Origin: Candidatus Omnitrophota bacterium
Lineage (GTDB): Bacteria; Omnitrophota; Gorgyraeia; Gorgyraeales; Gorgyraeaceae
Assembly: GCA_026387235.1 (NCBI GenBank)
Contig: JAPLMD010000069.1
Span: 26,920 to 90,919, forward strand
Reading direction: 5' to 3'
Length of the DNA stretch: 64,000 nucleotides
In this document: positions 3,793 to 53,254 of the stretch, piece after piece
Layout: every line of letters starts with the position of its first letter
How positions within the stretch are numbered: the stretch's first letter is position 1
Notes under the pieces: model-generated
What the model saw: the letters and a program-made list of their open reading frames with translations, nothing else
What the model was told of the DNA's origin: nothing
Database searches by the model: none
Program-made: the position numbers and the translations under genes

Positions 3793-3793
3793 A

Positions 3794-4691: not shown

Positions 4692-4711
4692 TTATGGTAT
4701 AATCTGACAAT

Positions 4712-6250: not shown

Positions 6251-6254
6251 TAAC

Positions 6255-6839: not shown

Positions 6840-6840
6840 T

Positions 6841-27181: not shown

Positions 27182-27197
27182 AAAATTGGATTTTTAT

Positions 27198-27226
27198 TTG
27201 ACACGAAAGCGTTTACGTGTTATACT
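27198..27226 (+). promoter_or_regulatory. Consensus-like sigma70 promoter TTGACA-17 nt-TATACT upstream of giant gene 1
   Basis: TTGACA at 27198-27203, 17-nt spacer, TATACT at 27221-27226. About 70 nt upstream of the ATG at 27296. A near-identical element is found before gene 3. Confidence 0.6.
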
Positions 27227-27295
27227 TTATAGTAGAGTTTTAAAAGCATTTAAAAATACATATAATATTTCCATGAACCTAAAGAGAGGGGTTAT

Positions 27296-30200
27296 ATGTC
27301 TGTGAAGCCATTATCTAGAGCAATCTCTATAACCGTGCTCATTACATTTCTTTTCACAAATATCCCATATGCTTCATCTGCCCCCAATTCTTTATTTAAG
27401 AACAAGAAAATAGACTATCAAAAGCTTTCCGATCAGAATCAAGATATTGTCCAGAAAAAGAAAGATATCCTATCTGGCGAAGATTCAAAACAAACCCAAT
27501 CACAGCAAAAACAAGCCCAGAAGATTCTGTCCAGCCATCTATCTGATATATCGCAGATTCATATTCCATCTGAGATAGGAAGGATAGTAGAGGTGCACCA
27601 GGGCACTGGGGCACCAGAGCATCAGGATAAGCTTATAGTGCACATACAAGACCTGCATACAAATCCTGAGGCAGAATATAACCTGGCAAAGATATTAGAG
27701 GTTCTATTAAATGACTATAAGATGGGTCTTGTATGTTCGGAGGGCGCTGATGGAGTTGTTGATACATCTAGTGTATCCACTTTTCCTGATTCCCAGGTAA
27801 GAGAAAAGATCTCCAAGATCTTTGTGAACGCAGGAGAACTCACAGGCGAGGAATACCTATCTATCACCAAATATCCTGATCTTCCCATCTGGGGCATTGA
27901 GAGTAAAGACATCTATTTCAGAAATATCATTGACTTCAATAAGATAATGAAATTCAACCCTGGGTCCCAAATCTTTATCTCCCAGGCTAAAAAAGCCCTG
28001 GAAGAGCTGAAAGCCAGAATCTATACAAAAGAACTGATTGAGCTGGACCAGAAAGAGGCTGATTACAAAGCCCAGAAGATAGAATCTCCTGAATATGTGA
28101 AATATCTTCTCGACTCGGCTGCTTCACAGCCTCGCTCGAAGAATATTCTCTCCAACTACAAAAATATCGGCCTATTGACTGAAACAATAGATGCGGAGAA
28201 AAAGATAGACCAGCTCAAGATAATGAACGAATCCCAAAAACTACTTTTAAACCTCCAGTCTTCCCTTAATGCCAAATCCCTCAACTCTGACATGGATTCT
28301 TTAATGGCAAAATCAAGCCTTTTCAAAGACCAGAAGATTTCACCATTCTCATTCTACAGCTACCTAAAAGACCTTGCAAATAAACACCTGAAGGACGAGT
28401 TTGGCGCAAAATACCCTAATCTGAATGGCTTTGTAGATTACCTCACTAAACTTAATTCTCTTGATTCCACAAAGCTCTTTATTGAATTAGAAGACCTGAA
28501 TTTTGAGATAAAACAAGCCCTTTCCAGAACAGATGAGCAAAAAACCCTTATCAAGGCCCTCAGAAACATAAGCTTCCTTGAAGGCTTTTTTAACCTCAAG
28601 GTCTCCAATGAAGAATTAGACTATTACCTTAATAATAAGGACTTCCATAAAGTAGCATTCTTTGAATCCTTCTTGAAACCAGCTATCAAAAAATACAATA
28701 TCAGCACCTTTATAGACTATAACCCCGATCTTATAGATTCCCATTTAACAGAGCTTGAGGATTTCTACAAGGTTGTAAAAGACCGCGATATCGCAATGGT
28801 AAATAACTCTATCTCTGAGATAGAGAAGCGCAACTCTAAAGTCAGCGCTCTTATTGCAGGAGGGTTTCATACAAAAGGCATCACTAAGCTCCTAAAAGAA
28901 AAAGGCTATTCCTATATAGTCATCTCCCCGTATTCAAAGACAGGTATAAATGAAGAGAACTATCACTATTTATTATCAGGCCAGCGTAAACCCTTAATGG
29001 AATTGGCAGAAAAGCTTAATGCTGCTGCTCTTCGCGTTATTCTTGGATTTGTAAAAGATCCGACCTTTGAAACAGAGCTTAAAAAAACTTTAGCTGCTGC
29101 TGGCATAATAGATAACCAGTTATATTCCGGTGCTAAACCAAGGATGTTATCTTTATTTGCGCTTGGGGCTGCTAAAACTCTATATCTGCGCGATAAAGCA
29201 AACTTTGATTTATCTGCGCTTCCAGCCTATTTTACATCTTCATTTTATACTGAATTAAATAAGCTTGGCTTAGATGTAGAGATAAGAGAGAGCAAATCAG
29301 GCATCCATGTGAAATGCGGGGATAATTACTTTGGCATAAATAAGGAAGATGGGGGGATAATAAAGTCTAATGCCAGCATATTTACCAGTGTATCTGATAA
29401 GAACAGAGTAATGCTGGCAAAAATAAGCGAAGAAGAGACGCTAAAAATTCCAGGGCCTCGTATTTCTGAAGGAATAACTCAGGCAGTTGCAGAAAAATGG
29501 AAAGCTAGAGCAGATATGGTTCCGGATTCGCAAATCAAAGTGATGAGAATAAAAGATTTGGAGATAGAAACTGTATTAATAACAGCTGATTCTGGAGATA
29601 TGCCTGAGGGGATACTGGCTTGGCGTTTGCGCGATAGTAAAAATAGGCTAGTGATAATTACGGAAAGGGAAGTAAAACTTGGAGACAGCTTTTCAGAAGA
29701 ACTTCTGTTTCACGAGCAATTTGAAGAGAATCTAAAACAAGAGCTTAATTATATTACTGACCGTGATCCAGAAAGGCTTAGACATACTAGGCATGCTATT
29801 GCCAGCGCAGTGGAATCTATACTATTTAGTGAGGGCGGGACCAGGCTTACGCCTTTTCATGAATATGCAATAGGCCATAGGATGAGCCTGTTGCACCTTA
29901 AAAGATTGGTCGATGAATATCAAGAACTAGGATTTTATTACAATATGATAGCAGATTTTTTTACTAGGAAAGGAATAGAATATCAAGATAAGGGCATAAC
30001 CATAGAAGCTTTACAGGCCTATGAAAGAAAATTTATAGCAAGAATAAAAGAAGAAATAAGGCACAGGACTACAGAGTCAAGAGCTCGGGCCGGCGCAAGG
30101 AGAAAGGGCAAAGCCGCTGAGGTGCCTAAGATGTATTTAGTGGGGAAAGTAGTTGTCCCTCAAGATGATGCCAGGACCCAGCAGGTGATTGAGCAGGCAA

Positions 30201-33200
30201 GGGGTCAGGAAAGGCTGGTAAGAATAGATGTATCTAAACAAGAGAGAATCACTCCGCAAGGCAGGTTTGCAGATATTTTGCGAGACGCAATCTCGTATTA
30301 TGAAAGACGGGGCGCATCTGATGAAGTAGCTGATTTGCAACAGACTGAATTTTACCTAGTTAGGCCGCAAGAGGATGATCCTAATCGCACTCTTCCAGGA
30401 TTTATTTGGTACGATTCAGATGGACATTACCTTATTGCCAAAGCAATGGAACCTAGACAAGCTTATTTTGGTTATGAGGCTATAGATATCTTAAGAGAAA
30501 AAAATCCAAGGATAGATTTTATTGCCAACATGCTTCTCCAGGTAGCACGATATGCTAAAGATCCTTATGGTAAGTGGGACCCATCTATACTTAACCATAT
30601 TTTGGCAGAGTCAGGAAACTATTTATTGGAAGATGCTCGTTTAATTAAAGAAGTGAGATTTATAATTAACCGCCTTTTTAAAGAAGAAACCTCGCCTGAA
30701 GAGAATGACCGGCTTCAGGGGCTCCTTATAGATATAAAACAACGCAAACCAGTTTTGTTCTATGTAGGGTTAGCTAATTTAGGAAGAACATACCTTCAGG
30801 GGATTTCCCCTAATAGATATCCCTGCGTCACTGCTGCAAATTTGTGTCTTGCCAGGAATTATGCTTTTATGGACCAGCATTTACAAAAGGATGCTTATGT
30901 CTCAGAAATAGACAGGACTATCACGGTTTTTAGAGATGTTTTTAATCCTACCTTAACTAGAGCGATTCCCTGGATGCTTCAGGTGTTAAAGGAGCAGCAG
31001 AATCCAGCTAATCCCAATTTAGTTAAGGGAGAAATACTTATAAAGAAAGGCGATAACTTTTTAGATCTTACTTGCGGGACAGGCATTTTTGGTTTGTTTG
31101 CAGCTTTAAACGGTGCAGAGAGTGTTTTAAGCAGCGATATTAATCCAAGTGCTGTGGCTTGCGCGAACTTTAATGCAAAAAAATTAGGAGTAGCTAAGAA
31201 AATGCAGGCAATACAAAGCGACCTTTTTAATGGTATTCCTAAAGATAGAAAATTTAACATTATCAGTTTTACCCCGCCATTCTTAGATGAGCCGCAATCT
31301 CCAGGCGTGTGGTTAGAAAAAGCTGTATATGACCCTGGATTCAGCCTTTTAACCCGTTTTTTAAATAGGGTTGGTAATTATCTAACTGATGATGGAAAGA
31401 TATTGTTTATAGGCACAGATAAGAGTCAGGGCCCAGAAGGGAAAAACAGCACAGGCCTCATGTTAGATTTAGCAAGACGGAAAGGATTTATCAGTACTAT
31501 TATACGTTCTCAAGAGTTTCATGGAGAAACCTACTCAGTTTATGAACTGACCAGAAGATCTGCTTTAGTGTCCGATAGCGAGATAGATAATCTTGTGGCA
31601 ACATCCCTAAGCTCTGACAAGGAATCAGCTAATTTTGCCATTAGAGAGTTAATTGAACAGGCTCGTTCTGCCTTTGATAGCAATCCTGAATTTTATCAAA
31701 GGCTATTCTTGCATCTCGTCCAGATTTATATTGAAGAATCCTATAACGGTTATGTATCGGAAAGGGTGATAGCTAAACGTAATGCAGGGGAGAGACCAGA
31801 CTTTTATGAAGAACAAAAGGCAGCAACCTATAATGCATCGGCAGCGCGAACAATAAACTGGTTTATTAAAGACTATTGTAGAGATGTTTTGAAATTAGAT
31901 CCTGAAGGCCAAATTGTTGAAGACTATTTTAGTTGCCTTCATATGTTGCCTATTATGAATAGAGATATGAAGAGAAGATTTAGCGAGCGTGATGGCATAG
32001 AGATAGATTCTACTATGATTGTTAATGGAAACCCAGAAGAAGTGCAGATGACCAAGGACTTTTATCGCGCGAGGTTGGGGCGTATATATGATTCTTTGAA
32101 AGTGATTGGCATAAGGGACGATCTATGGCTTGGCAATATAGTAGGTATGATGCCTTTATTTGAGGACTATTTGGCCCAGCCATCAAGAGACCAGGAAGCC
32201 AAGGGTAATAAAAAGGTTATATTGCATGTCTTGGCAGTTAATGGCGGCGCAGGAGCCAGAAATATTCTTCTTACAGCATCTTCTGATGGAAAAGGTGAAA
32301 TCATTCTTGACAATGGCCGCACAATGATGGAACAGGGCATTGAACAGGTAAAAGGCATGGTTCAGGGGTTAGTAGAAAGAAACATATATGGCGAATTTTT
32401 TATTGTTATTCCCTGCGATAACATGATACTCCCAGCCATGTATACAGCTGATGCTTACAGATCAGATAGAGGGTTTTATCTCTATGCAAGGAAGACTGAG
32501 GTTTTAAGGGCATCATTGAATGAACTTAAACATTGGGGGCCGCCGTTTGGCCAGATGTTTGCAAAAAGGGAAACGGGTATCGTCAAAGGTTTTGAAGAAA
32601 AACCAAACATATGGAAATTACTAAACAGAGTCATGATCAATGCTATTGAAGAAAGCAATGAAGAAACTTGCGGAAAAAGCATTTCGGAATTTTTATACAA
32701 CTTAGATACCAGAAGGAACAGGTATTTAGATGACTTGAAACAAAAATCCGGGGATTACGCCTTATACCTTATCGCCCTTCCTATGATTGTTCAGGAGGAG
32801 GTATGGAATTATGTCTATGAAAACGGCGAGGTGGAACCTGAAATCAGGAAGATTATCCCTACTTTTGATGAGTGGAAAAGGTTATATAGCGAAGCTAATA
32901 AACATAAGTCTCGAGTAGAAGGATTGATAAACAAAGTTTTAGATGAAGGAGGCACTGTTTCTTTTACAAATACTTTCTATTTTCTTTTATCCAGGCCTGT
33001 AGCAGAAAAGATTTATACTCTATTTTCACAGCCTACTGAAAGAGAGGACAGCGGTTCTTTCTGGGCAAGAAAGCTTCCCAAAGGCCAGACTCCAAAAATG
33101 GTAGCCGCACTTGACTGGGCAGGCTTAATCCTTACACCCATGACTGTAACCCAGGAAACATGGATGGAAGACTATGAAAAAAGAGGCGCTATGTATTTGG

Positions 33201-36166
33201 CAGAGCAGCAGGTGACTGATTTTATAAGTCAGGCTAGCTCCTTAAAAGAAGCCTATTGTCAAAAATTTAGTATAGCTTCCGAAGCTTATGAAGGCCAAGT
33301 AAATGCTTATCAAGAAAAGGCTGCTAAGGAAGGCATAGTTGAGACAGCTTTTCCTGTTCAGGATACTTATCAGAAAACTTTGAAAGCCTTTTTAGAGAAG
33401 GCACTTAAAAAAGATTTAATCAATGCTTTTGCCGCAGATATTAGATCAGCAATGATACAGGATAGTACTGTGCGAGCCAATGTTCTGGAAAGCGCTGAGA
33501 AAGTCACAACATATACTCACTATGACTGGAATAGAATCTGGGAAATGGCTCTGGACATTGACCTGGCAGCCGGCGGTTTAACATGTGTTAACTTTGGCCC
33601 GATCTGGTCTGATGTTGGTACAATTAAAGAAGCCAAGAGGCTGGCAGATTACGAGGTTTCAAAGGATAATCTTTTAGAGAGGGCTTTATATAGAGGTCTG
33701 TTTGAGCTGCCTATTACCCATGATAAAATATACAATGTTGATTCTAATAAGGGTAAGATTGTATATTCTAGCCCAAACGAATTCTTGCGTTATCGCAGTG
33801 TTATTGATGTTCCAGAAGGCGTAACTTTAATAATAGGAAATAGAGTAAGGATTGCTAATAGTTTTATTCAAATAATAGCCAAAAAAGGGGAAACAGTAAT
33901 AATACCTGATGATACTGCAATAGTAGCTAGTTATTTGCGCTGTTCAATAGGAAAGGAAGGCAAGCCAGGGTCATTTGTGTATAGACACGAGCAGAGAAGA
34001 GGTACTTTAGAATTTTCAGGAGATTTCATTACAACGATCCGGACCATTGAAGGGCCAGTGAGAGGAACCCATCCCATAGATGCAACTACTATTGCATGGA
34101 ACGACGTTCCAGTGGCAGGAACTTATACTCCCAGGATGTTGACTAGGCCATTTCCGGGTATGCCTGGACCCTTGCGAGACAAGCCTAAAGTTACTTCTGT
34201 TGTTGTTAGGGAAAAAACATATAGTTTTTATAGAAGTCGTCTCGATCGCATTATAACTACGATTTGGGAGAGAGCACAGTCACAAGAGGTCAGATTTATC
34301 CCTGAAAAGGCCATTGGAAAAATTATAGACATGGTTCAGAATGATAGAGCAAAAAGTGAAGGCAGAGGCTATATTTCAAGTTTCCTTTTTATAGGAGGCA
34401 ATGTCGGAGGTTTAGAGCCTCAAGTTTATACTCAGACATTAGAGAGATTAAGTAAGCATTATTTATATTATACTACTCCAGAAAGAAGGATTGGAGAAGA
34501 AGGGGTTTTCGGAAGGCGAGGCATGTCAGGTTTACAACATTCGTTAAGATCAATGCAACTGAATGATAAATATACTACTGAATTTCTGAATAGAGCCAAA
34601 GACCTGATTAAAGAAAGAAACATGAGAGGGCTTAAAGCATGGATAGAAGAAGCTAAACAGATAGATCCAGAAGAAGCAGGGATTAAGACTTTACGTTGTG
34701 CATTGGACTATTTAAGTAAAGAAGGGAGCCAGGTTGTACTTTACAGGATAGTTAGCAGGGCAGAAATAATAAAAGAGTATATTAGAGGCGAACATGGCGA
34801 AGAATTGGATATAGCTGACGCAGAACGAAAAGCCCGTGATTTATTAAGTGGGAAAGATCCTTATAAAGTTGATGAGCAGGATTTCTTAAGATTAATAGTA
34901 AGAGGGGAGACAGATCCAAATGACGCACATTCAGGCAGCCTGTCACATGACTTGCTTAGACACTATGAAGAAGGAGGTATTTTAAAAGGAGCTCTTGTAG
35001 AGAACGTTGCTAAATATAATATACCCAAAAAGGCCTTAATTAGTATTATGTGCGTCTTTCGCTGCCCTAGCAGGTCGGAGCTATTCTCTGATTTAGCTCA
35101 GCTGCCTCAAGAAGATATAGGCCTTTTAGAAAGTAAACTTGAGGATGCGATGTTTACGCATGACGAGATGTTATCAAGAAAGGTGAAAGAACTCCTTCAT
35201 AAGCATGGTAAGCCAATTACTGTAACCATAGATGGCTTAGCCATGACAGGCAAGAGCACGATGAGTAAAGATATAAGCAATGTCTTAGGATTTACACGTA
35301 TACCTGGAGGAGAGATAAGCAGGCTGATAACAGCTGGCCTGCTTGGAACAGGTATAAACCGTAATACTATAGAATCTACAGAGCCTGATACGATAGTTGC
35401 TGCAGTGCAGCAAACCTTGGAGGACGTGAAATATAAATTAATAGGCGGCGCTGTAACATTGTGCTATAAAGACACAGATTTGCTTAATAATCAAGATCTT
35501 TTAAGTCAACTCCGCAGCCAAGATATCAATGACAATATATCTTCACTTGTTATGAACAGTAACATTGTCAGAAATCTGCTTATAATGCATATCATGGAAT
35601 TGATAAAACAAGTCCATGATCTTGGTTTCAGCGTGGTGATAGATGGAAGATTAGCTGGAACTGAAATAGAACGGCAAGCAGATGTAAAGATTTGTTTGGA
35701 CACAAGCTATGAAGCCATGGCCAGAGCAGATGCCCGTAGAATTATTGACCAAAAAGGTAGTATGACTGCTTACATAGAGAGAACCGGCAATACTATGGCA
35801 GAGTATAGGCAAATTATAAGAAGTGGAGGGTTGCCAGGTGTGGAAAGAGCGATAATGCAGACTTATTATCAGCCAGCAGAAGAAAGAGATGCGAGTGATG
35901 TTTTAGATGTGGCTGAGTATCTATCCAGCAGAGAACAAGATGATGAGATTACTGTTATTTCATCAAGGGGCGTAGAAGATAGATTATCTATTAAGGATGT
36001 AAGAGAAACGATATTTGCAGAGATTATTAAAAAAATTAGCAATGCAGAAGATGCTGTAACTGTACTGAATTTAAGAGAGGGAACCCAGCCAGGAGTACCT
36101 TCAGATGCTGGTGTGTATCTCGAAACAGCTGTTCAAGGACTTAGAACCACAGGTCAAGGCCTATAA
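27296..36166 (+). CDS. Giant secreted multidomain protein (2956 aa). Signal peptide, paralogous N-domain, class-I SAM amino-methyltransferase domain, possible NTP-transferase-like stretch, shared C-module, cytidylate-kinase-like P-loop domain.
   Basis: Sec-type signal peptide MSVKPLSRAISITVLITFLFTNIPYASSA|P. N-domain (~27383-29020) ~80-85% identical to the gene 3 N-domain. MTase motif I DLTCGTG (31063-31083) and motif IV FTPPF (31268-31282). LAVNGGAGARN…FIVIPCDNM (32215-32430) weakly nucleotidyltransferase-like. Cmk-like ITVTIDGLAMTGKST (P-loop) and VVIDGRLAGTE…KICLDTSYEAMARADARR (35213-35745). Confidence 0.85.
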   Translation: MSVKPLSRAISITVLITFLFTNIPYASSAPNSLFKNKKIDYQKLSDQNQDIVQKKKDILSGEDSKQTQSQQKQAQKILSSHLSDISQIHIPSEIGRIVEVHQGTGAPEHQDKLIVHIQDLHTNPEAEYNLAKILEVLLNDYKMGLVCSEGADGVVDTSSVSTFPDSQVREKISKIFVNAGELTGEEYLSITKYPDLPIWGIESKDIYFRNIIDFNKIMKFNPGSQIFISQAKKALEELKARIYTKELIELDQKEADYKAQKIESPEYVKYLLDSAASQPRSKNILSNYKNIGLLTETIDAEKKIDQLKIMNESQKLLLNLQSSLNAKSLNSDMDSLMAKSSLFKDQKISPFSFYSYLKDLANKHLKDEFGAKYPNLNGFVDYLTKLNSLDSTKLFIELEDLNFEIKQALSRTDEQKTLIKALRNISFLEGFFNLKVSNEELDYYLNNKDFHKVAFFESFLKPAIKKYNISTFIDYNPDLIDSHLTELEDFYKVVKDRDIAMVNNSISEIEKRNSKVSALIAGGFHTKGITKLLKEKGYSYIVISPYSKTGINEENYHYLLSGQRKPLMELAEKLNAAALRVILGFVKDPTFETELKKTLAAAGIIDNQLYSGAKPRMLSLFALGAAKTLYLRDKANFDLSALPAYFTSSFYTELNKLGLDVEIRESKSGIHVKCGDNYFGINKEDGGIIKSNASIFTSVSDKNRVMLAKISEEETLKIPGPRISEGITQAVAEKWKARADMVPDSQIKVMRIKDLEIETVLITADSGDMPEGILAWRLRDSKNRLVIITEREVKLGDSFSEELLFHEQFEENLKQELNYITDRDPERLRHTRHAIASAVESILFSEGGTRLTPFHEYAIGHRMSLLHLKRLVDEYQELGFYYNMIADFFTRKGIEYQDKGITIEALQAYERKFIARIKEEIRHRTTESRARAGARRKGKAAEVPKMYLVGKVVVPQDDARTQQVIEQARGQERLVRIDVSKQERITPQGRFADILRDAISYYERRGASDEVADLQQTEFYLVRPQEDDPNRTLPGFIWYDSDGHYLIAKAMEPRQAYFGYEAIDILREKNPRIDFIANMLLQVARYAKDPYGKWDPSILNHILAESGNYLLEDARLIKEVRFIINRLFKEETSPEENDRLQGLLIDIKQRKPVLFYVGLANLGRTYLQGISPNRYPCVTAANLCLARNYAFMDQHLQKDAYVSEIDRTITVFRDVFNPTLTRAIPWMLQVLKEQQNPANPNLVKGEILIKKGDNFLDLTCGTGIFGLFAALNGAESVLSSDINPSAVACANFNAKKLGVAKKMQAIQSDLFNGIPKDRKFNIISFTPPFLDEPQSPGVWLEKAVYDPGFSLLTRFLNRVGNYLTDDGKILFIGTDKSQGPEGKNSTGLMLDLARRKGFISTIIRSQEFHGETYSVYELTRRSALVSDSEIDNLVATSLSSDKESANFAIRELIEQARSAFDSNPEFYQRLFLHLVQIYIEESYNGYVSERVIAKRNAGERPDFYEEQKAATYNASAARTINWFIKDYCRDVLKLDPEGQIVEDYFSCLHMLPIMNRDMKRRFSERDGIEIDSTMIVNGNPEEVQMTKDFYRARLGRIYDSLKVIGIRDDLWLGNIVGMMPLFEDYLAQPSRDQEAKGNKKVILHVLAVNGGAGARNILLTASSDGKGEIILDNGRTMMEQGIEQVKGMVQGLVERNIYGEFFIVIPCDNMILPAMYTADAYRSDRGFYLYARKTEVLRASLNELKHWGPPFGQMFAKRETGIVKGFEEKPNIWKLLNRVMINAIEESNEETCGKSISEFLYNLDTRRNRYLDDLKQKSGDYALYLIALPMIVQEEVWNYVYENGEVEPEIRKIIPTFDEWKRLYSEANKHKSRVEGLINKVLDEGGTVSFTNTFYFLLSRPVAEKIYTLFSQPTEREDSGSFWARKLPKGQTPKMVAALDWAGLILTPMTVTQETWMEDYEKRGAMYLAEQQVTDFISQASSLKEAYCQKFSIASEAYEGQVNAYQEKAAKEGIVETAFPVQDTYQKTLKAFLEKALKKDLINAFAADIRSAMIQDSTVRANVLESAEKVTTYTHYDWNRIWEMALDIDLAAGGLTCVNFGPIWSDVGTIKEAKRLADYEVSKDNLLERALYRGLFELPITHDKIYNVDSNKGKIVYSSPNEFLRYRSVIDVPEGVTLIIGNRVRIANSFIQIIAKKGETVIIPDDTAIVASYLRCSIGKEGKPGSFVYRHEQRRGTLEFSGDFITTIRTIEGPVRGTHPIDATTIAWNDVPVAGTYTPRMLTRPFPGMPGPLRDKPKVTSVVVREKTYSFYRSRLDRIITTIWERAQSQEVRFIPEKAIGKIIDMVQNDRAKSEGRGYISSFLFIGGNVGGLEPQVYTQTLERLSKHYLYYTTPERRIGEEGVFGRRGMSGLQHSLRSMQLNDKYTTEFLNRAKDLIKERNMRGLKAWIEEAKQIDPEEAGIKTLRCALDYLSKEGSQVVLYRIVSRAEIIKEYIRGEHGEELDIADAERKARDLLSGKDPYKVDEQDFLRLIVRGETDPNDAHSGSLSHDLLRHYEEGGILKGALVENVAKYNIPKKALISIMCVFRCPSRSELFSDLAQLPQEDIGLLESKLEDAMFTHDEMLSRKVKELLHKHGKPITVTIDGLAMTGKSTMSKDISNVLGFTRIPGGEISRLITAGLLGTGINRNTIESTEPDTIVAAVQQTLEDVKYKLIGGAVTLCYKDTDLLNNQDLLSQLRSQDINDNISSLVMNSNIVRNLLIMHIMELIKQVHDLGFSVVIDGRLAGTEIERQADVKICLDTSYEAMARADARRIIDQKGSMTAYIERTGNTMAEYRQIIRSGGLPGVERAIMQTYYQPAEERDASDVLDVAEYLSSREQDDEITVISSRGVEDRLSIKDVRETIFAEIIKKISNAEDAVTVLNLREGTQPGVPSDAGVYLETAVQGLRTTGQGL

Positions 36167-36169
36167 GGA

Positions 36170-36341
36170 ATAATCTGGCCTCTGGTTATAGCGCTTTTTC
36201 AGGTTTTAATTATGCCTAAGTGATAGGGGATAAAGGCCTTAAAAGAGGCGTAGTCGAGATAAAGATAAGAGAAACCGGAGAAATCCTGGAATCCAAAAAA
36301 GAAGAAATAAAAGGCAAAATCCTATCATTATTAGCTACGTA
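36170..36341 (+). pseudogene. Degraded duplicate of the proS 3' end (two fragments with an internal deletion)
   Basis: Translates to IWPLVIALFQVLIMPK* … VVEIKIRETGEILESKKEEIKGKILSLLAT*. This parallels the proS C-terminus IWPLAIAPFQVIIIPL … VFELKIREANKIIEIKKEEIKHKILSLIAL*. Roughly 70% nt identity over both fragments. Confidence 0.75.
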
Positions 36342-36396
36342 GTACACAATAAAAATATAGAATTTTTGTTTGACAGAAAAGCGGAAGAGGGGAGCC

Positions 36397-38130: not shown

Positions 38131-38166
38131 AGGATAGGGGATGAAGGAAAACGCCCAATTTTTTAT

Positions 38167-38195
38167 TTGACAAGAAAACGGTTACATGGTATACT
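38167..38195 (+). promoter_or_regulatory. Duplicated sigma70-like promoter TTGACA-17-TATACT upstream of gene 3
   Basis: ttttttatttgacaagaaaacggttacatggtatacttttatatag is near-identical to tttttatttgacacgaaagcgtttacgtgttatactttatagtag upstream of gene 1. Confidence 0.6.
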
Positions 38196-38240
38196 TTTAT
38201 ATAGATTTTAAAAGTATTTATATAAAAAGGAGAATAAGAT

Positions 38241-42854: not shown

Positions 42855-45800
42855 ATTTATTCATAATGAGGAAGAATATGCCGCATAGCTACTTTAAAAA
42901 AACCCTATCTTTTTTTACCCTGATTGCTTTTATTTTTACAAATGCTAGCTATGCTGCCCCTGATTATAATAGCTTATTTAAAAATAAAGCAGCGCTCAGG
43001 GTGCCGCTTAATTCTGATAAGCTTAGGGATGAATTTTTAGAAGTTGCTTCAGCCAAAGGTACAGGAGTTGCGCATCGTGGCTCTAATAGCATAAATGAAG
43101 CAATAAGATTAGCATATGACGCAAGGAACAAAGACAAAGAAACATTTTTTGTAATTCAAGAAAATGGAAAACCAGTCAGAGGAATCAGCAGATATCACGC
43201 TGCTATTTTACCTGCAACTTTCAAAGCTATAGACAGCCTGGATGCATCAGCAGTAAAACTAATATTAACAAGACTAGAGAGAAACATTTCTGAAATCTTA
43301 GGCCTTAGAATCCGACTATCAACAATAGGCAAAGATCAAATTAAAGATACGATAGAATCAGCTTTGACAGTTTTAATAAAAGACCCAAATGATCCTGATA
43401 ATCCTCTTATTATTGCGAAGAGCCTTAATGAATATAATGCTGGACATAATAGCCCTAAAAGAAAAAGTATATATTTACCAAGAAGGTTTATAGATGGCCT
43501 GATAAAAGAGGGAGAGATGAGTATCGTAGCAGCAGCTGAAGGCCATGAAGGTTTTCAGCTTGCCGTTGCACTTGCTTTGGGTAATAAATATGATGAAAGA
43601 AATGAAGTCTTATTGGATGCAATTAATAACGCAGCTGAAGAGTTTGAGTGTTTAATAGCAGGAAAAAGCAGATTAGGATTAAATAGCAGGCTGGACGACC
43701 AGATATTGGCCTCAATAGCATGTACTACAAGAGGCGCACAAAAACTTCAATTTGCAAATTCGCTATCTCAAAAGGTTACTCCTGAGCATGGGCTTAGTGA
43801 AGAAGATTTGGCTGAAGTGAAAGATGCATTGGAAGAGGTCCACGCCTCTATTCAATCAGATGACAGCCTTAATGGGTTATATAAAAGCCCGTCAAGTTAT
43901 GTGGAAAGACAAAAAGATATAGCCCGGATGAGCGCGCTAGCAGAAGAATGGAAAGATAAGTATAATGATATTTTGATTATAGGCGGAGAAGATAGCGGTA
44001 CCCATATGGCATTTACAGCGCTTACTGAAGAAAACCGGAACAACCTTTCTAAAGCAGAAAGAAAAGGATTTCCTAGGATACATTTCGTGGACATGGATAA
44101 GGTAGTTGAAATTGCACACCGCATAGATTTAAAAAAGGCTGGAATTTTAGTAATAGGTAATAATATAAGCAATGCTAATGCTGCAACATGCAGGTATTTA
44201 CAAGAAATATATGGTAAAGAAGGTATAGCATCCAGACTTGCTATTGTAGGTGACTCAGGAAAGACATTAGGGGAAACAGTGCCTTCTGAGAAACAGTTTT
44301 CATTACCCGAAGGCTTAGGCAACATGGATTCTTTTTTTAGCGCCGCAGGATTACTGCCTATTGTTTTGGCAGGTAAAGTTAGGGAGGCTCAGGATATATT
44401 GACAGGAGCTGAATCTGCTGCTGAGGATATAGCAGGAATAGATTTAACTGCTCCAACAACAGGAATTCCAGCCATATTCATGTATCCTGAATATATGCAT
44501 CCTGGAATTATTGCAGCGCTATATGAAAAAAAGGCAAAAGATGTGAGCATCTATTGTCCTTTTTCAGAAAAATTGAGGTTATTTGGTGTATGGACTGCAA
44601 ATCAGTTTAATTTAGTTATAAGCGGAAGAAAAGGTAATAGTTTAGTTTTTCAAGGCGCAGTAGGCACAAGGCATAATCATGCCAGTTTACAAAACTGGCA
44701 AAAAGGCCATAATATGTTTCAAGTAATTACACTTGGGGTGAATGAATTTAATAGCAATCTGGCTGCCGGAAGGTCCAGTTACAATCTATTTAGAAATATG
44801 TCATTTGCTGACCTTATGAATTTTGCAATGGAAGGCACAGAACAGGCTTTAGCAGATGGGAAAAGGCCAAATTTAGGCTATAGAATTAAGAAAGTAGATG
44901 GAGTTAATTTAGGAGGATTGATTTATACAACGCTTTATCAAAAACTCGTTCTTTCTAGATTGCTAGATAAAATGGATAAAGGAGAAAGGGCGCAAACAAC
45001 AGTTGCTAGTTTAGAAAAAGAGACAGAAAATGCTGTTGCGAGCAAGGTTGTTTCTGCAGAGGGCAAGCCTAGTGTTATAAGAGATGCTTCTGGCCTTAGC
45101 CTTGATTATTCAGGTGCTCTTGGAAAAGATGGAGTAACTACGGAAGAGATGCCTGAGGTTGTTGCAGATTTGGTAGATATACAGATGGAAGTGGCAAAAG
45201 AAAGACTTGCAGGTAAACATGATTATCTTAATCTTCCTGAGCGCATGATAAAGGAAATCCAATCAGATAATTTTAGAGGTATAATGAAGGACTTCAGGGA
45301 GTTTGAGGATGTCCTTGTAATAGGCATAGGAGGTTCTAGCGTAGGTGCAAAGATGTGCTTGCAAGCACTTTCTGTGCCTGGTGATAGAAAAATTCCAAAT
45401 GTTTATTTTCTTGAAAGCGTGGATCCGGATTATATAGAAGAAATAACCAAGAATATTGATTTTACAAAAACAGGAATAATTGTAATCAGCAAAACCGGAG
45501 AAACAATGGAATCCAATACAGTCTTCGCAGCTGTAAAAGAAATGATGCAGCAGAGTTTTAGCAGTATTGGCCAGCCTGCGGATTACAAAAAGAATATATT
45601 AGCCATTACAGATCCTGATCATGGCTTATTGAAAAAGGAGGCAAAGAGAGAAGGGTATCGCACCTTAGATGTACCTCCTTTAGTAGAGGGCAGATTCACA
45701 GTGCTTTCCGCAGTGGGTATTGCAGTCATAGGGCTTAAGCTTACAGATAATGAATTATTAGAATTGTTAGAAGGTGCTAGAGATTATGTAAATACAACAG

Positions 45801-48571: not shown

Positions 48572-48591
48572 TATTTGCTAAATAGTATTTC

Positions 48592-48645
48592 AGGGACGGT
48601 TCTGGTGGAGCCAATAATAGAACCGTCCCTCAATTTTGGTATTTT
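48592..48645 (+). terminator. Rho-independent terminator-like hairpin after giant gene 4
   Basis: Perfect 11-bp stem AGGGACGGTTC (48592-48602) / GAACCGTCCCT (48620-48630), 17-nt loop, then CAATTTTGGTATTTT. 20 nt after the gene 4 stop; gene 5 ATG at 48646 follows immediately. Confidence 0.6.
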
Positions 48646-50622
48646 ATGAAAACGTTTTCTATTTCTAAAAAATTAAATACCTTACTTAATGCGCATGGGG
48701 ATAAGGCCATGGCTGACAGGTTCCTGAAAGGCGGGTACAGGCAGGATGGCTATGGTGTGCCTAGTGGGTCTGCAATAAATGGTTCTTTTGCTTTTGAAGG
48801 TGAGCAGGGATATTATACTGAAGACGGAAAAAAGGCTTTTCTTGGGACTGTTAAAAGCATGAGAGATTTTTTTGAAAGGCGTAAACCTATAAAACTGGTT
48901 ATTAAATTAGGCATAGGCGGGCAGCATACACCATTTCAAGGCATAGCTGATATCTTTGGCGCGCAGAAAGGCGTAAAGATTTCTGGAGAATATGAGCTTG
49001 GCAAAGATTATGAAGAATTTATAGTTAAGACTTTAAAAGAACTTAAAGCAGGCTGGGATGAAGTGGCAGTGATACCAAGCTCAAAATCAGGCTCAACTGA
49101 TGAAACAATGATGGTTTTTGTGGATATATTTTATGTTCTATTAAAATATCAAGCTATAAAGATGGGTCTTGACGGAGAAAAATTTGCGAAATTGGTTTTA
49201 GATACGCTTCATGAGATTAATTTTATAAATAGAAAAGAAAGACCAGGGAAAGAGCTTTTTACATCAGATGTGGGTATTATGAAACGCATATCTGAAAAAG
49301 TTGATATTTCAAGCAAGAAGATAAATGATATATTCGCCAAGGTTCTTGGGAATATGTTTTTTGAGACTACAGACAGGGCGGAACAGAGCAGGCTTTCAGC
49401 TTTTATCAGGAATTCAGGCCTGGATAAGGAACTTGGAGATGATGCGCCTGGTTTCGGAGCGATGTTTGATAATGTAGGGGGTAGGTGGACAGCAGATCTT
49501 CATATGATGACATTCCTGGCTTACCTTGGTCTTGATGCTGAAAAATACTGGAAGATACGTAAATATGGGATAAGTAAAGTCAGGGAAGGAAAACATCAGG
49601 CAAATAGTATTGCTAAAAAAATTGTAGATAATGAAATAACAGATATTGCACTTTTACTTCCTGACCAGTTTTTCTGGTTTGGGAAATCCATTGAGCAGAA
49701 TTTCAATGAAAGCATATGGCAGGAAGGTTTTGCGAACTTAATAGCAATAAGAGAGTCTCAGTGGAAGGCGCAAGAAAAATATTACAAGGGCAAGAAAAAG
49801 CTGATTATAAAAATATCAGATTTAAAAATTCCTGATTTTAAAAAGCTCAATAATCAGGAAAAAGCAAATGCCCTAGCAGAGCTTTTTACAACATTCTACG
49901 GCATTACTTCTATTGTTGGAAATTTATTGATTGAAAAGGCTCTCAGGAAAGCAGGATACAGCAAAAAAGATGTTGATTTAAATAATCTGGATAACCCGGC
50001 TACAAAGATAGTTCAGGAGAATCTATATCTTAGACAGCCTTATGTTGAACTAGGAAAAGGACTTTTAGAGGCAAGGCTAAAAGAACTTCAGGAAAAGGAA
50101 ACTAAAAAACCAGGTTCAATAGAAGAGGAATACAGGAGAATAGTAAAGCTTGCTGAATCAAAGAAGATGGAATCCAGTATCTCAGACATAGCTTCGTTTG
50201 AAAAGGCAATTGAATTTGCCATGAAAGACTCCAGGAAATTTGTCCCGTTTATTTATTTAGAAGGAGATAAATTTTATAATCTCAGGGATTATCTGATTTC
50301 AGAAGGCATTGAGTGGGTAATGCAGGGAACAGGAGACCAACATATAAGTTTTCAGCAGGTCCTGGCTCAGCCGCAAAAATACTTGCCGTTTATTATCTCA
50401 TTTATTCCCGAAAAACCATTGCCTGGCAGGCCTGCCATAGGTTTTGCTAAAGGTTATCTTCATAATATAAGCCCTAACATGGTGCGTGACTTTTTCGCAG
50501 AGGCATCATACAAGGCTTTAGTTTCACAGGGAGGAAAAGGGTTTTTTATAAGGTTAATTGATCACAAAGAAAATATCAGCATTATTAAAAAAGGAATATC
50601 AGATACCGCTAATGCAATCTAA
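48646..50622 (+). CDS. SIS-domain (phosphoglucose-isomerase-like) protein, 658 aa, no signal peptide
   Basis: LGIGGQHTP (48907-48933) and SSKSGSTDETM (~49080-49110), the paired SIS/PGI motifs GxGGS…SKSGxTxET. Hydrophilic N-terminus. Confidence 0.6.
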   Translation: MKTFSISKKLNTLLNAHGDKAMADRFLKGGYRQDGYGVPSGSAINGSFAFEGEQGYYTEDGKKAFLGTVKSMRDFFERRKPIKLVIKLGIGGQHTPFQGIADIFGAQKGVKISGEYELGKDYEEFIVKTLKELKAGWDEVAVIPSSKSGSTDETMMVFVDIFYVLLKYQAIKMGLDGEKFAKLVLDTLHEINFINRKERPGKELFTSDVGIMKRISEKVDISSKKINDIFAKVLGNMFFETTDRAEQSRLSAFIRNSGLDKELGDDAPGFGAMFDNVGGRWTADLHMMTFLAYLGLDAEKYWKIRKYGISKVREGKHQANSIAKKIVDNEITDIALLLPDQFFWFGKSIEQNFNESIWQEGFANLIAIRESQWKAQEKYYKGKKKLIIKISDLKIPDFKKLNNQEKANALAELFTTFYGITSIVGNLLIEKALRKAGYSKKDVDLNNLDNPATKIVQENLYLRQPYVELGKGLLEARLKELQEKETKKPGSIEEEYRRIVKLAESKKMESSISDIASFEKAIEFAMKDSRKFVPFIYLEGDKFYNLRDYLISEGIEWVMQGTGDQHISFQQVLAQPQKYLPFIISFIPEKPLPGRPAIGFAKGYLHNISPNMVRDFFAEASYKALVSQGGKGFFIRLIDHKENISIIKKGISDTANAI

Positions 50623-53254
50623 AAAGGTTTACAGGGCAATATCTTTCTTAAGTATTGCAGCGTTTATTGTTACTAATACTTGTTATGCATTTTCAGGTTC
50701 AGGCGCATTAAGGCCGGCTATGGTAATGGGAAAATTGATACAACCATCTGCCGTTAAATTCCAGCCGCTCGGGATGCTTACCGATGATGGCAGATTGAAT
50801 ATGCGCAGGCTTGAAAAATTGCTTGGTGCCACTGCGACTGAAATAATAAGAAAAGACGCGGGCAATAAAGACATAACAGTAAATTGTATTTTTATAGGCA
50901 GTGCCAGGTATCTTTCTGACAACGAAGGCTTTGTTCCGTTGGGAAGGATAGGAGATATAGATTATGCATTAGTGGCTACTAAACTAGAAGATGCAGCATA
51001 TGACTATTCTAAACTGTGGTATAAGACATTGATGGAAGTAATAAAACTGTTATCGCCAAGTGAAGATAAAAGATATGAAGTATTACATCGGGCATTATCT
51101 GGTGCAAAACCAATTGTACTATTTCAAGATGAATTTGATTTTACCAAAGGCATGTCGGAAGTTTTAAAAAGAATTACAGGTGAAACCGAAGAACTGTCGC
51201 TAACACCAGACAATGCTGAAAAAATAGCAAAACGATATATTCAATTGGCATATTATTTAGGCTCTTCAAAATTACATGAAAGGCTCATTGGGGATTTTCT
51301 AGCAGTAGACAAGGACGATAAAGATGGTTTAGTCAAATTGGCGCAGAAATTTCGAGAAGATGGTGAGATACAAAGGCTTGTGGATTTTCTTAATTCTTCC
51401 AAGGATGAAATATTATCAGCTGCAATAGAGAATAGATTAAGGGGGATTCCGGGCTATGAATGGCTTAATAGTAGCATAGACCGAACTGGTTATCAGAGAA
51501 GGTTAGAAGAAGCAGGGTTTTCTTTTGCCAGAAAAGAAGCTCAGAAAGAACCTAAGAGGGTAATAGTTTTTGACTTAGACGGCACTGTTCTCGATACTGA
51601 AGAAATCACTTTGGCGGTTTTTATCCGCCATATAACGCGGATAGTAAATGGCATAGATGATATTAATTGGTCTCCTAACCCTAAACAGGTTGAGGAAGCA
51701 CAAAATATCTACAAACAATGTGTGGCTATCTCGACTGTACCGGCAAGAAAAATCTTTGAAACAGCAGAAGGGATTGCTAAAGATAGAGGTTTTTCTGTCA
51801 AATCTGTGAAAGAATATATAGAAGCTTTTGATAGAGATAAAAGAGAGACGATAATTGCGGAAATAAAAAAATCCCCAACCAAGCTTATCTTTCCAGACGC
51901 CTTGATTTTGCTGAATTTTCTTAAAAAATATACGGATGTAGAACTCTATCTTTGTTCCGGGGCAGCGCCTGTCTATACACAAGAGGCTTGTAAGGAGGCA
52001 GGCCTTGTAGCTATATTCGGCAATAATATATTCGGTTCTCGTAGGGATGAATCGCCAGAAATGCCTAAAGATAAAAAGGATTTAATCCGGAGATTGAAAA
52101 CAGAAAAAAATTTATCTAACGCAGAAATAATGCTTATTGATGATTTAAAAGGGTTTATAGTTCGTATAAAAGAAGGAAATGATGCAATAGCTGTTGCAAT
52201 AGATAGAGGAAATACAAAACTACAGGAATTTATAGATTCAGGCGCTGATTTTATTGCAAACAGCCTGGCCAATCCTGAAGGTTTCTGCAAAGTAGTAAAT
52301 ATTCCAATATCCTTACAAGCGAAAAAAGCGGCTATCGTTAGTAATATAAAGGGTATGATTGAAAGAGACAGGTTAGAATATGAAGAAACAGGCCATATAT
52401 CTTTACTTCTTCTTAAAGGAGGAGAGGAAGAAGGGGGTTGCCAGGCTGAACTTAGGTCTGAGACGGTGGAGCGGTTAAAAAAACATTGGTTGCTTGTTTC
52501 TTGTCCGATTAGAAAAATTGGTGAAGCAGGAGCTTTAGTCAAATGGGGTATGTCTGGACTGCAATATCCTTTAAAAATTATGGAAACAAAGCCTTTAATA
52601 TTTACCAAAGAGTTTATAGATATTGCAAGAGGAATGATTATGAATAGAGATTTTACAGGGCTTAAAGCATGGATAGCGGAAGCAGAAGGTTTAGATCCTA
52701 CCGACGTAGGCCATAAAGCCCTGTCCCGCGCTTTGGACTACTTAAGCAAAGAAGTACAGCAGATGTTGCTTTATAGAATAAGCAGCAGAGATGCGGCAAT
52801 GCTGGAATTTGTTAGGGGTGAAAATGGCGAAGAATTGCCGCTAGTCCAAGCAGAACAAAAAGCCCGGAATTTATTAAATGGAAGGGACCCTTATAAAGTT
52901 GATGAACAGGACTTTTTTAAAGCAATTGTGGTAGGGGCTACGAATCCGCTTCATGCGCATCCTGGCAGTTTAAGGTATAGCGTGGGTGAACGCTACAAGG
53001 AAGGTGGTAGTTTAAGGCCAGCTATTGAAAGGTCCAGAGCCGAATTTGGCATAGAAGATATTGAGCTTCTAACCAGTATTATGAACGCTTTTCATTCTCC
53101 CAGCAGTAATGAAATGCCTGATGAGTTAAACCAAATGACAACCCAGGAGCTGGAAATTTTAGAGAGGGGAACAGCTCTATTGCAAGAACAAAGGATTTTA
53201 GGTGTTTTTGGGCCTTTAGAGACGGTTTCAGAAGAAGCAAGATTTGGAATGTAG
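50612..53254 (+). CDS. Secreted multidomain protein (~880 aa): signal peptide, unknown region, HAD-superfamily (DxDGT) domain, C-module shared with giant gene 1
   Basis: Signal peptide MQSKKVYRAISFLSIAAFIVTNTCYAFS. HAD motif I VIVFDLDGTVLDTEE (51569-51610). C-module (~52500-53254) alignable with gene 1 ~34480-35200: …RKIGEAGALVKWGMSGLQ…GLKAWIAEAEGLDP…ALDYLSKE…GENGEELPL…KARNLLNGRDPYKVDEQDF…. The ORF-track start at 50558 overlaps gene 5 by 65 nt; the in-frame ATG at 50612 gives an 11-nt overlap. Confidence 0.75.
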   Translation: MQSKKVYRAISFLSIAAFIVTNTCYAFSGSGALRPAMVMGKLIQPSAVKFQPLGMLTDDGRLNMRRLEKLLGATATEIIRKDAGNKDITVNCIFIGSARYLSDNEGFVPLGRIGDIDYALVATKLEDAAYDYSKLWYKTLMEVIKLLSPSEDKRYEVLHRALSGAKPIVLFQDEFDFTKGMSEVLKRITGETEELSLTPDNAEKIAKRYIQLAYYLGSSKLHERLIGDFLAVDKDDKDGLVKLAQKFREDGEIQRLVDFLNSSKDEILSAAIENRLRGIPGYEWLNSSIDRTGYQRRLEEAGFSFARKEAQKEPKRVIVFDLDGTVLDTEEITLAVFIRHITRIVNGIDDINWSPNPKQVEEAQNIYKQCVAISTVPARKIFETAEGIAKDRGFSVKSVKEYIEAFDRDKRETIIAEIKKSPTKLIFPDALILLNFLKKYTDVELYLCSGAAPVYTQEACKEAGLVAIFGNNIFGSRRDESPEMPKDKKDLIRRLKTEKNLSNAEIMLIDDLKGFIVRIKEGNDAIAVAIDRGNTKLQEFIDSGADFIANSLANPEGFCKVVNIPISLQAKKAAIVSNIKGMIERDRLEYEETGHISLLLLKGGEEEGGCQAELRSETVERLKKHWLLVSCPIRKIGEAGALVKWGMSGLQYPLKIMETKPLIFTKEFIDIARGMIMNRDFTGLKAWIAEAEGLDPTDVGHKALSRALDYLSKEVQQMLLYRISSRDAAMLEFVRGENGEELPLVQAEQKARNLLNGRDPYKVDEQDFFKAIVVGATNPLHAHPGSLRYSVGERYKEGGSLRPAIERSRAEFGIEDIELLTSIMNAFHSPSSNEMPDELNQMTTQELEILERGTALLQEQRILGVFGPLETVSEEARFGM

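Follow-up and report, generated by a model that had tools for sequence, protein, structure and literature searches.

A block of six genes between proS and rimP

We analyzed a 64,000-nucleotide stretch of a metagenome-assembled genome (MAG) of an Omnitrophota bacterium (contig JAPLMD010000069.1; hereafter the window, whose coordinates are used throughout), in which a 26-kb block of six open reading frames (ORFs), g1 to g6, is sited between proS and rimP. We find that this array is an expanded version of a gene family specific to the Omnitrophota lineage, whose members follow a fixed modular scheme: a leader, an optional N-terminal module, one junction motif, and a cargo that varies by species and is made up of central-carbon, sugar-activation and nucleotide enzymes. 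The six ORFs all run in the same direction, as an initial annotation of this DNA had it. The protein lengths given there also hold (2956, 1537, 1906 and 658 amino acids (aa), and 881 aa for the one put at about 880) except for g2, which encodes 577 aa and not 578. The genes are as follows:

27296-36166, forward strand: g1, 2956 aa; leader, N-domain, junction motif, and a cargo of methyltransferase, nucleotidyltransferase-like region, possible nucleoside diphosphate kinase (NDK)-like domain and Cmk-like domain
36397-38130, forward strand: g2, 577 aa; leader and N-domain only, without junction motif or cargo
38241-42854, forward strand: g3, 1537 aa; leader, N-domain, junction motif, a region without assigned family, probable phosphohexomutase
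42851-48571, forward strand: g4, 1906 aa; leader, SLFKNK, junction motif, two phosphoglucose isomerase domains (PGI-1, PGI-2) and two fructose-bisphosphatase domains (FBPase-1, FBPase-2); no N-domain
48646-50622, forward strand: g5, 658 aa; no leader, divergent phosphoglucose isomerase fold
50609-53254, forward strand: g6, 881 aa from the first Met (the ORF opens at TTG 50558); leader, junction motif, a region without assigned family, HAD phosphatase, and a domain shared with g1

The flanks are housekeeping genes, with uppS, cdsA, dxr, rseP, ispG and proS upstream and rimP, nusA and infB downstream. On account of these flanks we reject a phage or other mobile element, which the co-directional genes might suggest. 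No fewer than 20 other Omnitrophota genomes show the order proS, N-domain gene, rimP-nusA-infB. Compared as DNA, the paralogous 5' parts of the three genes g1 to g3 share 67-70% identity, and so they are old duplicates rather than collapsed repeats. Together, the recurring order and this level of identity exclude mis-assembly. In addition, g2 and g5 are identical to hypothetical proteins on a 107.7-kb contig of a Candidatus Omnitrophica MAG.

A junction motif defines three family forms

The motif xLR(V/I/A/P)(P)(L/M)xF separates the leader or the N-domain from the cargo. In a motif scan, 38 of the 42 ORFs whose cargo spans 380 aa or more have it, and none of the nine stand-alone or short-tailed ORFs does. 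It is single in each protein, and in members with an N-domain it lies 52 or 61-65 residues past the sequence GGFH. Four of the six window genes carry it, and g2 and g5 do not:

29030..29053, forward strand: g1 junction, LRVILGFV, aa 579-586
39999-40022, forward strand: g3 junction, LRVNMGCD, aa 587
42995-43018, forward strand: g4 junction, LRVPLNSD, aa 49, directly after the leader and SLFKNK
50708-50731, forward strand: g6 junction, LRPAMVMG, 5 residues past the predicted cleavage site

In other genomes, genes with leader, LRV junction and cargo but no N-domain lie just downstream of the N-domain giants. Such genes carry PGM, PPDK, a combination of GNAT, cupin-type GPI and PfkB, or GltD-like domains; one of them, at L057:18494-21724, encodes a protein with a GltD-like Fer4_20 and FAD/NAD domain. 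Based on these genes and on the distribution of the motif, the family takes three forms: head only, head-junction-cargo, and leader-junction-cargo. All three occur in the window, where g2 is a head alone, g1 and g3 have head, junction and cargo, and g4 and g6 have leader, junction and cargo. From its sequence, g4 looks as if the N-domain had been precisely excised ahead of the junction. We also considered whether the motif might recur between cargo domains, as cleavage sites do in a polyprotein, and rejected this, given one internal match compared to 1.6 in shuffled sequences. In a subset of members the region right after the junction is itself conserved (..V-P-LAKIW..EE-T..), namely in g3 (aa 583-919; 39987-40997) and in relatives L040, L011 and L045.

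Cargo turns over at a conserved site

The proS-rimP hotspot is conserved across at least 20 species. Proteins flanking the site are 63-91% identical, and the cargo is wholly different even between species whose ProS is about 80% identical. Among 24 complete relatives, the cargo includes PGM (5), PGK (3), UDPGP (3), aminotransferases, PPDK, enolase, PMI, PFK, ABC1 kinase, class-II aldolase, GlpX, GDH, PGI and phosphoribosyltransferase. Syntenic examples include UDPGP with PGM (L012 and L005), GDH with enolase and UDPGP (L006), GlpX with aldolase (L009), PGK (L007) and PGI (L004). When the window cargo was compared by blastp and phmmer with the cargo of related N-domain genes, there was no match except for the short post-junction region of g3; g5 was also matched among the syntenic relatives. 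A 1041-aa stretch of g1 cargo has 2 homologues among 5.8 billion proteins, and for a 1200-aa stretch the number is 40 out of 1.84 billion representatives, mostly in other giants. This pattern of turnover is typical of conflict or interface proteins. The window proteins span 577-2956 aa, and some relatives exceed 3.9 thousand amino acids (kAA) or reach up to 7.2 kAA. In one relative (L006:2461-10392, cargo 48-438 and 1069-1603), Enolase_C precedes Enolase_N and the GDH catalytic domain precedes the N-terminal dimerisation domain; this swapped order of Pfam domains suggests circularly permuted enzymes.

The N-domain has a TIKI/TraB/EreA-like fold

An N-terminal module of about 560-575 aa is common to g1, g2 and g3 (60-70% identity) and absent from g4 and g6. 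It consists of a Lys-rich motif, a disordered linker and then a domain with the TIKI/TraB/EreA fold:

27557..29020, forward strand: g1 N-domain, aa ~88-575; TIKI/TraB/EreA-like fold with a helical insert of about 300 aa
38502-39965, forward strand: g3 N-domain

The alignment-based model of the N-domain has a predicted local distance difference test score (pLDDT) of 79.5 and is an alpha/beta fold with a parallel beta-sheet core. Its structural matches include HopBA1 (10.5), two EreA-like "succinoglycan biosynthesis" proteins (10.2 and 9.7), a TraB family protein (9.8), EreC (9.2), ChaN (8.8), RRSP (8.1) and PMT (7.4). Since all of these are members of one superfamily, the N-domain as modelled is a TIKI/TraB/EreA-superfamily fold, with the insert placed between the two fold halves. 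At the sequence level, sub-threshold ChaN/Tiki (PF04187) matches were found in 6 of 33 N-domain members (best E 0.035), and there was no family profile match at a curated threshold and no sequence or profile match in the PDB. The initial annotation was thus right that a module of about 560 aa exists, and too broad in its extent, given its absence from g4 and g6; the predicted fold also replaces the description "novel".

Residues D117-x-H119, E147 and H522 are invariant across the 33 N-domain sequences, as are R494 and D495. The spacing of 28 residues between H119 and E147 equals that between H3902 and E3930 of RRSP (PMC6254334). We propose that D117-x-H119, E147 and H522 mirror the 2His/2Glu site of the superfamily and are candidate catalytic residues, the first acid being Asp and not Glu. 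This constellation of two His and two acidic residues would be shared with TraB/PrgY/GumN, ChaN, erythromycin esterase and Tiki. The N-domain differs from the superfamily in its insert, in the Asp for the first Glu, in its fusion ahead of enzyme cargo and in the lack of a Pfam threshold match. Many bacterial members of the TIKI superfamily are extracytoplasmic.

The N-domain family is multi-copy, with 62 loci in a scan of one genome per species and up to five per MAG. All records named below the level of "bacterium" are Omnitrophota MAGs or single-amplified genomes, except for some labelled Planctomycetia. We take the latter to be mislabelled and the family to be confined to Omnitrophota. Many small PilZ genes come after a stand-alone N-domain gene in another Omnitrophota genome (L001:11735-21722), and they echo the pilZ genes reported downstream of giant genes.

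Enzyme domains of the cargo

The following cargo domains were assigned in g1, g3, g4 and g6:

31028..31420, forward strand: g1 class-I S-adenosylmethionine (SAM) methyltransferase, aa 1245-1375; Pfam MTS 7e-10, PDB 1dus 1.2e-6
32213..34105, forward strand: g1 sugar-nucleotidyltransferase-like region, aa ~1640-2270; at motif level only, with a beta-helix-like tail
34211..35143, forward strand: g1 domain in common with g6, 45% identity over about 300 aa
35216..35758, forward strand: g1 cytidylate-kinase-like domain, aa 2641-2821; P-loop GLAMTGKST, PDB 3r8c 7e-8
41058-42680, forward strand: g3 probable phosphohexomutase; four signature loops, TMSH, DPDADR, ENTTH and RFSNTGS, by inspection
43751-44926, forward strand: g4 PGI-1, aa ~301-692; NF010697 8e-21
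45098-46090, forward strand: g4 PGI-2, aa ~750-1080; keeps GIGGSS, SKTGET, GRFTV and WNESYGK
46514-47329, forward strand: g4 FBPase-1, aa ~1222-1493; Pfam 37.8 bits against a cut-off of 34.8, motif NPLDASS
47528-48490, forward strand: g4 FBPase-2, aa ~1560-1880; SEEED, DPLDGSS and LRL..SE
51557-52147, forward strand: g6 HAD phosphatase; motifs I-IV DLDGT, CSG, K and IDD
52313-53197, forward strand: g6 domain in common with g1

Most cargo enzymes keep their catalytic motifs. In g1, both the methyltransferase and the Cmk-like kinase that had been named earlier have Pfam matches as well as PDB sequence matches. The methyltransferase carries LDLTCGTGIFG, and its motif IV reads TPPF. The kinase scores 61.1 bits against a PF02224 cut-off of 26 (E 1.6e-16) and falls below the equivalog TIGR00017 cut-off (57 vs 135). 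The possible nucleotidyltransferase of the initial annotation finds backing in the motifs GGAGAR, CDN, F-EEKP and WSDVGT, which are conserved in 11 relatives, and its profile matches are all sub-threshold: ADP-glucose pyrophosphorylase and CCT profiles reach only E 0.16-0.85, and one relative matches PF07959 at 3.9e-4, below the cut-off. For the domain shared by g1 and g6, hhalign gives 76% probability to NDK over 24 columns (with hand-entered reference NDK sequences), and NDKs make up 9 of 14 weak PDB matches. We note as a lead only that this domain may be NDK-like.

In g3, the four loops agree with the earlier phosphoglucomutase-like call. PGM domain II reaches 20.7-23.3 bits in Pfam, below the cut-off of 29.3 (E 6e-4), and PDB sequence and profile searches with g3 gave nothing significant. 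For g4, Pfam and NCBIfam bear out a PGI-like part and two class-I FBPase domains, and we see two PGI domains where one had been counted. The PGI match is to PF00342 (79.5 bits vs a cut-off of 22, E 2.8e-22), and FBPase-2 matches both the N (89.9 bits, 2e-25) and C (70.5 bits, 1.5e-19) FBPase families of Pfam; the FBPase domains do not reach the NCBIfam equivalog cut-offs. The NPLDASS of FBPase-1 is an Asp-to-Asn change at a metal ligand. The HAD domain of g6, previously recognised by its DxDGT signature, has DLDGT and scores above the PF00702 cut-off (44.1 vs 26.4 bits, E 3.9e-11). These identifications uphold the pathway logic first noted for the array, from FBPase to PGI to PGM, with a possible nucleotidyltransferase. 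No family was detectable in g1 aa 576-1240 and 1400-1630, g3 595-940, g4 57-300 and g6 60-330.

A stand-alone phosphoglucose isomerase

The product of g5 is reached by no sequence profile in Pfam, NCBIfam or a PDB profile search, and an hhalign comparison with the PGI region of g4 is weak (15% probability). Its model, in contrast, has a pLDDT of 87.7 and a predicted template modelling score (pTM) of 0.89, and its best Foldseek matches in the PDB, including the top 38, are phosphoglucose isomerases (E from 1.5e-7). The family of g5 has 62 relatives at 39-74% identity, none with a Pfam match over the g5-like part. Its invariant elements are GIGGQH, SSKSGSTDE, GGRWT, NES, DQHIS and a C-terminal Lys. 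In other genomes it lies in unrelated housekeeping contexts, and in L005 it adjoins a giant gene. Based on the predicted fold, we propose that g5 is probably the cell's own, highly divergent PGI and probably not part of the leader-bearing set. The earlier SIS/PGI-like assignment of g5 stands in terms of fold, and its place in the array does not. Given this conserved, leaderless PGI beside the cargo PGIs, the cargo copies are not the only ones. Some of the "missing PGI" in metabolic reconstructions of Omnitrophota may also be explained by PGIs of the g5 type; a June 2026 preprint scores PGI as positive in 67 of 176 complete genomes (10.64898/2026.06.07.730766). Within the g5 family (P0057-P0117; 650-790 aa, with a conserved PGI fold), P0107 has 6PGD and 6-phosphogluconolactonase-type Pfam domains and P0113 has PGM domain IV.

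The leader

By inspection, the N-termini of g1, g2, g3, g4 and g6 have a basic n-region, a hydrophobic core of 12-14 residues and a c-region of the form ...TNxxYA/A, where the slash marks the predicted cleavage site. The claim that five genes share a leader is thus confirmed; an analysis of charge and hydrophobicity of the N-termini found no leader in g5. The leader of g4 comprises aa 1-35, and that of g1 is delimited as follows from its sequence and from charge and hydrophobicity:

27296..27373, forward strand: g1 leader, aa 1-26, ending ...TNIPYA/S; followed by the SLFKNKKIDYQK motif at aa 32-43

The n/h/c layout, with an xYA/A or xYS/E c-region, is kept in more than 30 relatives. The n-region carries 2-4 basic residues; helix breakers occur in the c-region, where positions -3 and -1 are taken by small residues. 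The leaders resemble those of the TolC-like, SH3 and PEBP proteins of the phylum, which served as exported controls. The features of a Sec substrate of signal peptidase I (basic n-region, h-region of 7-15 residues, small -3/-1 residues) are all present by inspection, and the early mature region is net positive. These N-termini are best read as Sec-type leaders, with putative export. There is no further hydrophobic or transmembrane (TM) segment and no C-terminal anchor in g1-g6; a few relatives have internal TM-like segments, most clearly L046. We rejected Cys depletion as evidence of export (0.24% in cargo, 0.32% in the leaderless g5 family, 0.44% in NusA), as leaderless g5 is equally Cys-poor and the measure is uninformative.

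A motif, S(I/L)FK(N/D)KK(V/I)DY, begins about 6-8 residues after the predicted cleavage site and before the disordered linker; it is strictly conserved in g1-g3 (aa ~32-43) and in all relatives. It may serve in sorting, retention or membrane binding. Lipopolysaccharide (LPS) genes and genes like those of type II secretion systems (T2SS) and type IV pili (T4P) are present in the same window. The T2SS/T4P-like set is at 2903-7272, about 20 kb upstream of the array, and contains three to four prepilin-type pseudopilins (one GspH-like), a PilM-PilN fusion, PilO and a T2SSB-like protein.

Relation to known systems

The initial annotation considered this architecture undescribed, which was overstated. 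West-Roberts et al. (2023; bioRxiv 10.1101/2023.11.21.568195) report TPI, PGI, FBPase, PGM/PMM, aldolase and PPDK in those parts of giant Omnitrophota proteins that are predicted to be extracellular, and a conserved T2SS-like locus upstream of the giant genes. The 2026 preprint (10.64898/2026.06.07.730766) describes 916 proteins of at least 10 kAA, among them a "multi-enzyme metabolic cluster" class of which 94% have a signal peptide or TM helix. Such domains are thus listed for leader-bearing giant Omnitrophota proteins in both. Our array is like the "Archaeovorins" (2023) and the metabolic cluster class (2026) in phylum, class (Gorgyraeia), N-terminal leader or TM segment and a T2SS-like locus nearby. 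It also shares the tiling of polypeptides with PGI, FBPase, PGM/PMM, aldolase, PPDK, HAD and methyltransferase domains and raises the same topology question, and many metabolic Pfam families are tiled on polypeptides with an N-terminal signal peptide or TM segment. In contrast to the giants as defined there, its proteins are 0.6-3 kAA and fall short of the lengths of at least 10 kAA (2026) and at least 30 kAA (2023). The array further differs in being multi-gene, in its fixed proS-rimP site, its TIKI-like N-module and its LRV junction, and in lacking HEAT, dockerin or TM-rich regions. Neither preprint contains the words TraB, Tiki, GumN or erythromycin, and in passages of the two we found no mention of the junction motif or the proS-rimP hotspot. 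What was known before, then, is that glycolytic-enzyme domains occur in leader-bearing giant Omnitrophota proteins; what is new is the TIKI-like head, the junction motif and the hotspot.

Two further groups of proteins invite comparison. MARTX and other polymorphic multi-effector toxins likewise join a constant delivery or processing part to interchangeable, strain-variable enzymatic cargo and share the idea of proteolytic release. MARTX toxins carry the TIKI-fold domain RRSP as cargo, whereas in the array the TIKI-like domain is the constant N-terminal part. The cargo here is ordinary central metabolism as opposed to recognised toxins, and, unlike in MARTX, there were no Pfam matches to RTX repeats, a cysteine protease domain (CPD) or a type I secretion signal in the six proteins. 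Parasite and surface parallels include the secreted hexokinase of microsporidia, moonlighting surface enolase, PGK and PGI, and the periplasmic glucose-1-phosphatase Agp of E. coli. All of these are alike in being central-metabolism or sugar-phosphate enzymes with a secretion signal that act on host or external metabolites, and they differ in being single enzymes without TIKI-like head, junction motif or polymorphic multi-domain cargo.

That Omnitrophota have leader-bearing proteins filled with glycolytic enzymes is a recognised peculiarity, and the puzzle is on which side of the membrane they act. The locus supplies small, tractable members (60-330 kDa instead of 1-15 MDa) with three handles: the conserved leader, the TIKI-like head with candidate catalytic residues, and the single junction motif as a candidate cleavage or sorting site. 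These features make the question of topology and processing directly testable.

Where the cargo may act

Our best reading, which we hold tentatively, is that the array encodes polymorphic enzyme cargo that is exported and works beyond the cytoplasm of the cell that makes it. The leader would carry the proteins across the inner membrane of an LPS-bearing diderm. The TIKI-like module would then act in cis (g1, g3) or in trans (g2 on g4 and g6) by recognising or cleaving the junction, and each cargo would be freed or passed on with a similar N-terminus. Outside the cytoplasm, the enzymes would act on phosphorylated metabolites derived from a host or prey. The FBPase, PGI, PGM and HAD domains of g3, g4 and g6 need no nucleotide cofactor; this set would act in the periplasm or contact zone, from fructose 1,6-bisphosphate (F1,6BP) to fructose 6-phosphate, glucose 6-phosphate, glucose 1-phosphate (G1P) and sugar, and the prey cytoplasm would be the site for ATP-, NAD(P)H- and SAM-dependent cargo. 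Stepwise conversion of F1,6BP to G1P or free sugar outside the cytoplasm could well proceed in biochemical terms. Omnitrophota are host-dependent episymbionts or predators, and predator RNA has been detected within prey cells (PMC13153191). Also in favor of this reading are the leader and its likeness to leaders of exported proteins of the phylum, the lack of any second hydrophobic segment or anchor in g1-g6, the LPS and T2SS/T4P-like genes, the invariant N-domain residues, the distribution of the junction motif, the interface-like turnover of the cargo, and the separate leaderless PGI. A more specific version, which we think unlikely but worth stating, is a modular cargo system, unrecognised until now, of episymbiotic or predatory Omnitrophota: exported proteins would be processed at the LRVPLxF junction by a TIKI peptidase, either in cis, as part of the same chain, or in trans, as a separate protein, and the cargo would serve as "metabolic effectors" at the zone of contact or within the prey, diverting the host's sugar-phosphate and nucleotide pools.

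A number of points weigh against action outside the cytoplasm. The first 18 "mature" residues have a net charge of +1 to +4, and Sec substrates do not usually have a net positive early mature region. A large share of the cargo in the family depends on ATP, UTP, NAD(P)H, SAM or acetyl-CoA. The GltD-like protein of L057 keeps the Fe-S ligands C...CP-x4-C-x3-C despite having only 7 Cys in total, and Fe-S/FAD cargo of this kind is hard to reconcile with Sec export, as Sec cannot normally deliver such a domain together with its cofactors. Cleavage at the junction is conjecture, and we know of no apparatus that moves proteins of 100-300 kDa into prey. The periplasmic enzyme role raised in the initial annotation is feasible for the cofactor-free FBPase, PGI, PGM and HAD domains, whereas cargo dependent on ATP, NAD(P)H, SAM or acetyl-CoA, or on Fe-S and FAD, weighs against simple periplasmic activity.

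A strong rival keeps the proteins inside the cell. In a membrane-tethered cytoplasmic metabolon, a possibility we take seriously but doubt somewhat, the hydrophobic segment, short and with basic residues on both sides, would be an uncleaved or in-plane anchor on the cytoplasmic face, and the cargo would serve gluconeogenesis and sugar activation. The retained catalytic motifs, the dependence on cytoplasmic cofactors, the cluster ligands kept in the GltD-like cargo and the strictly conserved K/R-rich stretch behind the hydrophobic core are all consistent with this, as is the coherent pathway of FBPase, PGI, PGM and nucleotidyltransferase with Cmk and a possible NDK. Both preprints point the same way: giants with only a TM segment are read so in the 2026 preprint (10.64898/2026.06.07.730766), and West-Roberts et al. 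warn that the extracellular call may be a topology error (10.1101/2023.11.21.568195). However, the +2 to +4 charges of the n-region favor an N-in, C-out orientation, and the helix breakers and small -3/-1 residues of the c-region are as in the phylum's real exported proteins. Nor would housekeeping enzymes be expected to be swapped wholesale between species with 80% identical ProS, or to score 5- to 10-fold under family cut-offs, and a conserved leaderless PGI is already present.

Divergence of this degree might instead point to enzyme folds reused as binding or scaffold modules, that is, surface or periplasmic pseudoenzymes for sugar phosphates, glycans or prey-surface molecules, in the manner of moonlighting surface glycolytic enzymes. 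PGM fails to reach the Pfam cut-off, equivalog scores fall well short of their thresholds, FBPase-1 has Asn for the first metal-binding Asp, motif IV of the methyltransferase is TPPF, g4 contains duplicated domains, and cargo turns over rapidly among species. We nevertheless judge this improbable, because full catalytic signatures are kept in FBPase-2, PGI-2, PGM, HAD and Cmk and because binding alone explains the recurrence of consecutive pathway steps poorly. Finally, the MAG source and the large parts without detectable family could hint at an artefact, either a chimera of the assembly or long ORFs formed by the fusion of pseudogenes in decay. This is effectively refuted by ORFs unbroken up to 8.9 kb, by synteny in at least 20 genomes, by the identical protein in an NCBI record of a 107-kb contig, by conserved promoters, and by paralogues too far apart in DNA (67-70% identity) to be collapsed repeats.

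Transcription signals and other features of the window

Putative regulatory elements were read from the intergenic sequence:

27198..27226, forward strand: promoter-like TTGACA-17-TATACT upstream of g1
38167..38195, forward strand: promoter-like site upstream of g3, 11/12 consensus matches
48593..48629, forward strand: GC-rich hairpin and short T-run after g4, a possible terminator

The promoter regions of g1 (27191-27252) and g3 (38160-38220) are 86% identical over 63 nt, and these near-identical elements indicate that the duplication brought its own promoter. The hairpin after g4 was not called in a consensus terminator scan. The genes overlap in the pairs g3/g4 and g5/g6, and the promoter, hairpin and overlap signals suggest four transcription units: g1, g2, g3-g4 and g5-g6. 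Rfam finds no RNA family within the window. At 8229-9062 and 16977-19064 the window contains one ORF combining LptC and LptA/LptD-N domains, with a Na+/H+-translocating pyrophosphatase nearby; these features are unremarkable in themselves but serve as markers of a diderm with an energy-limited lifestyle.

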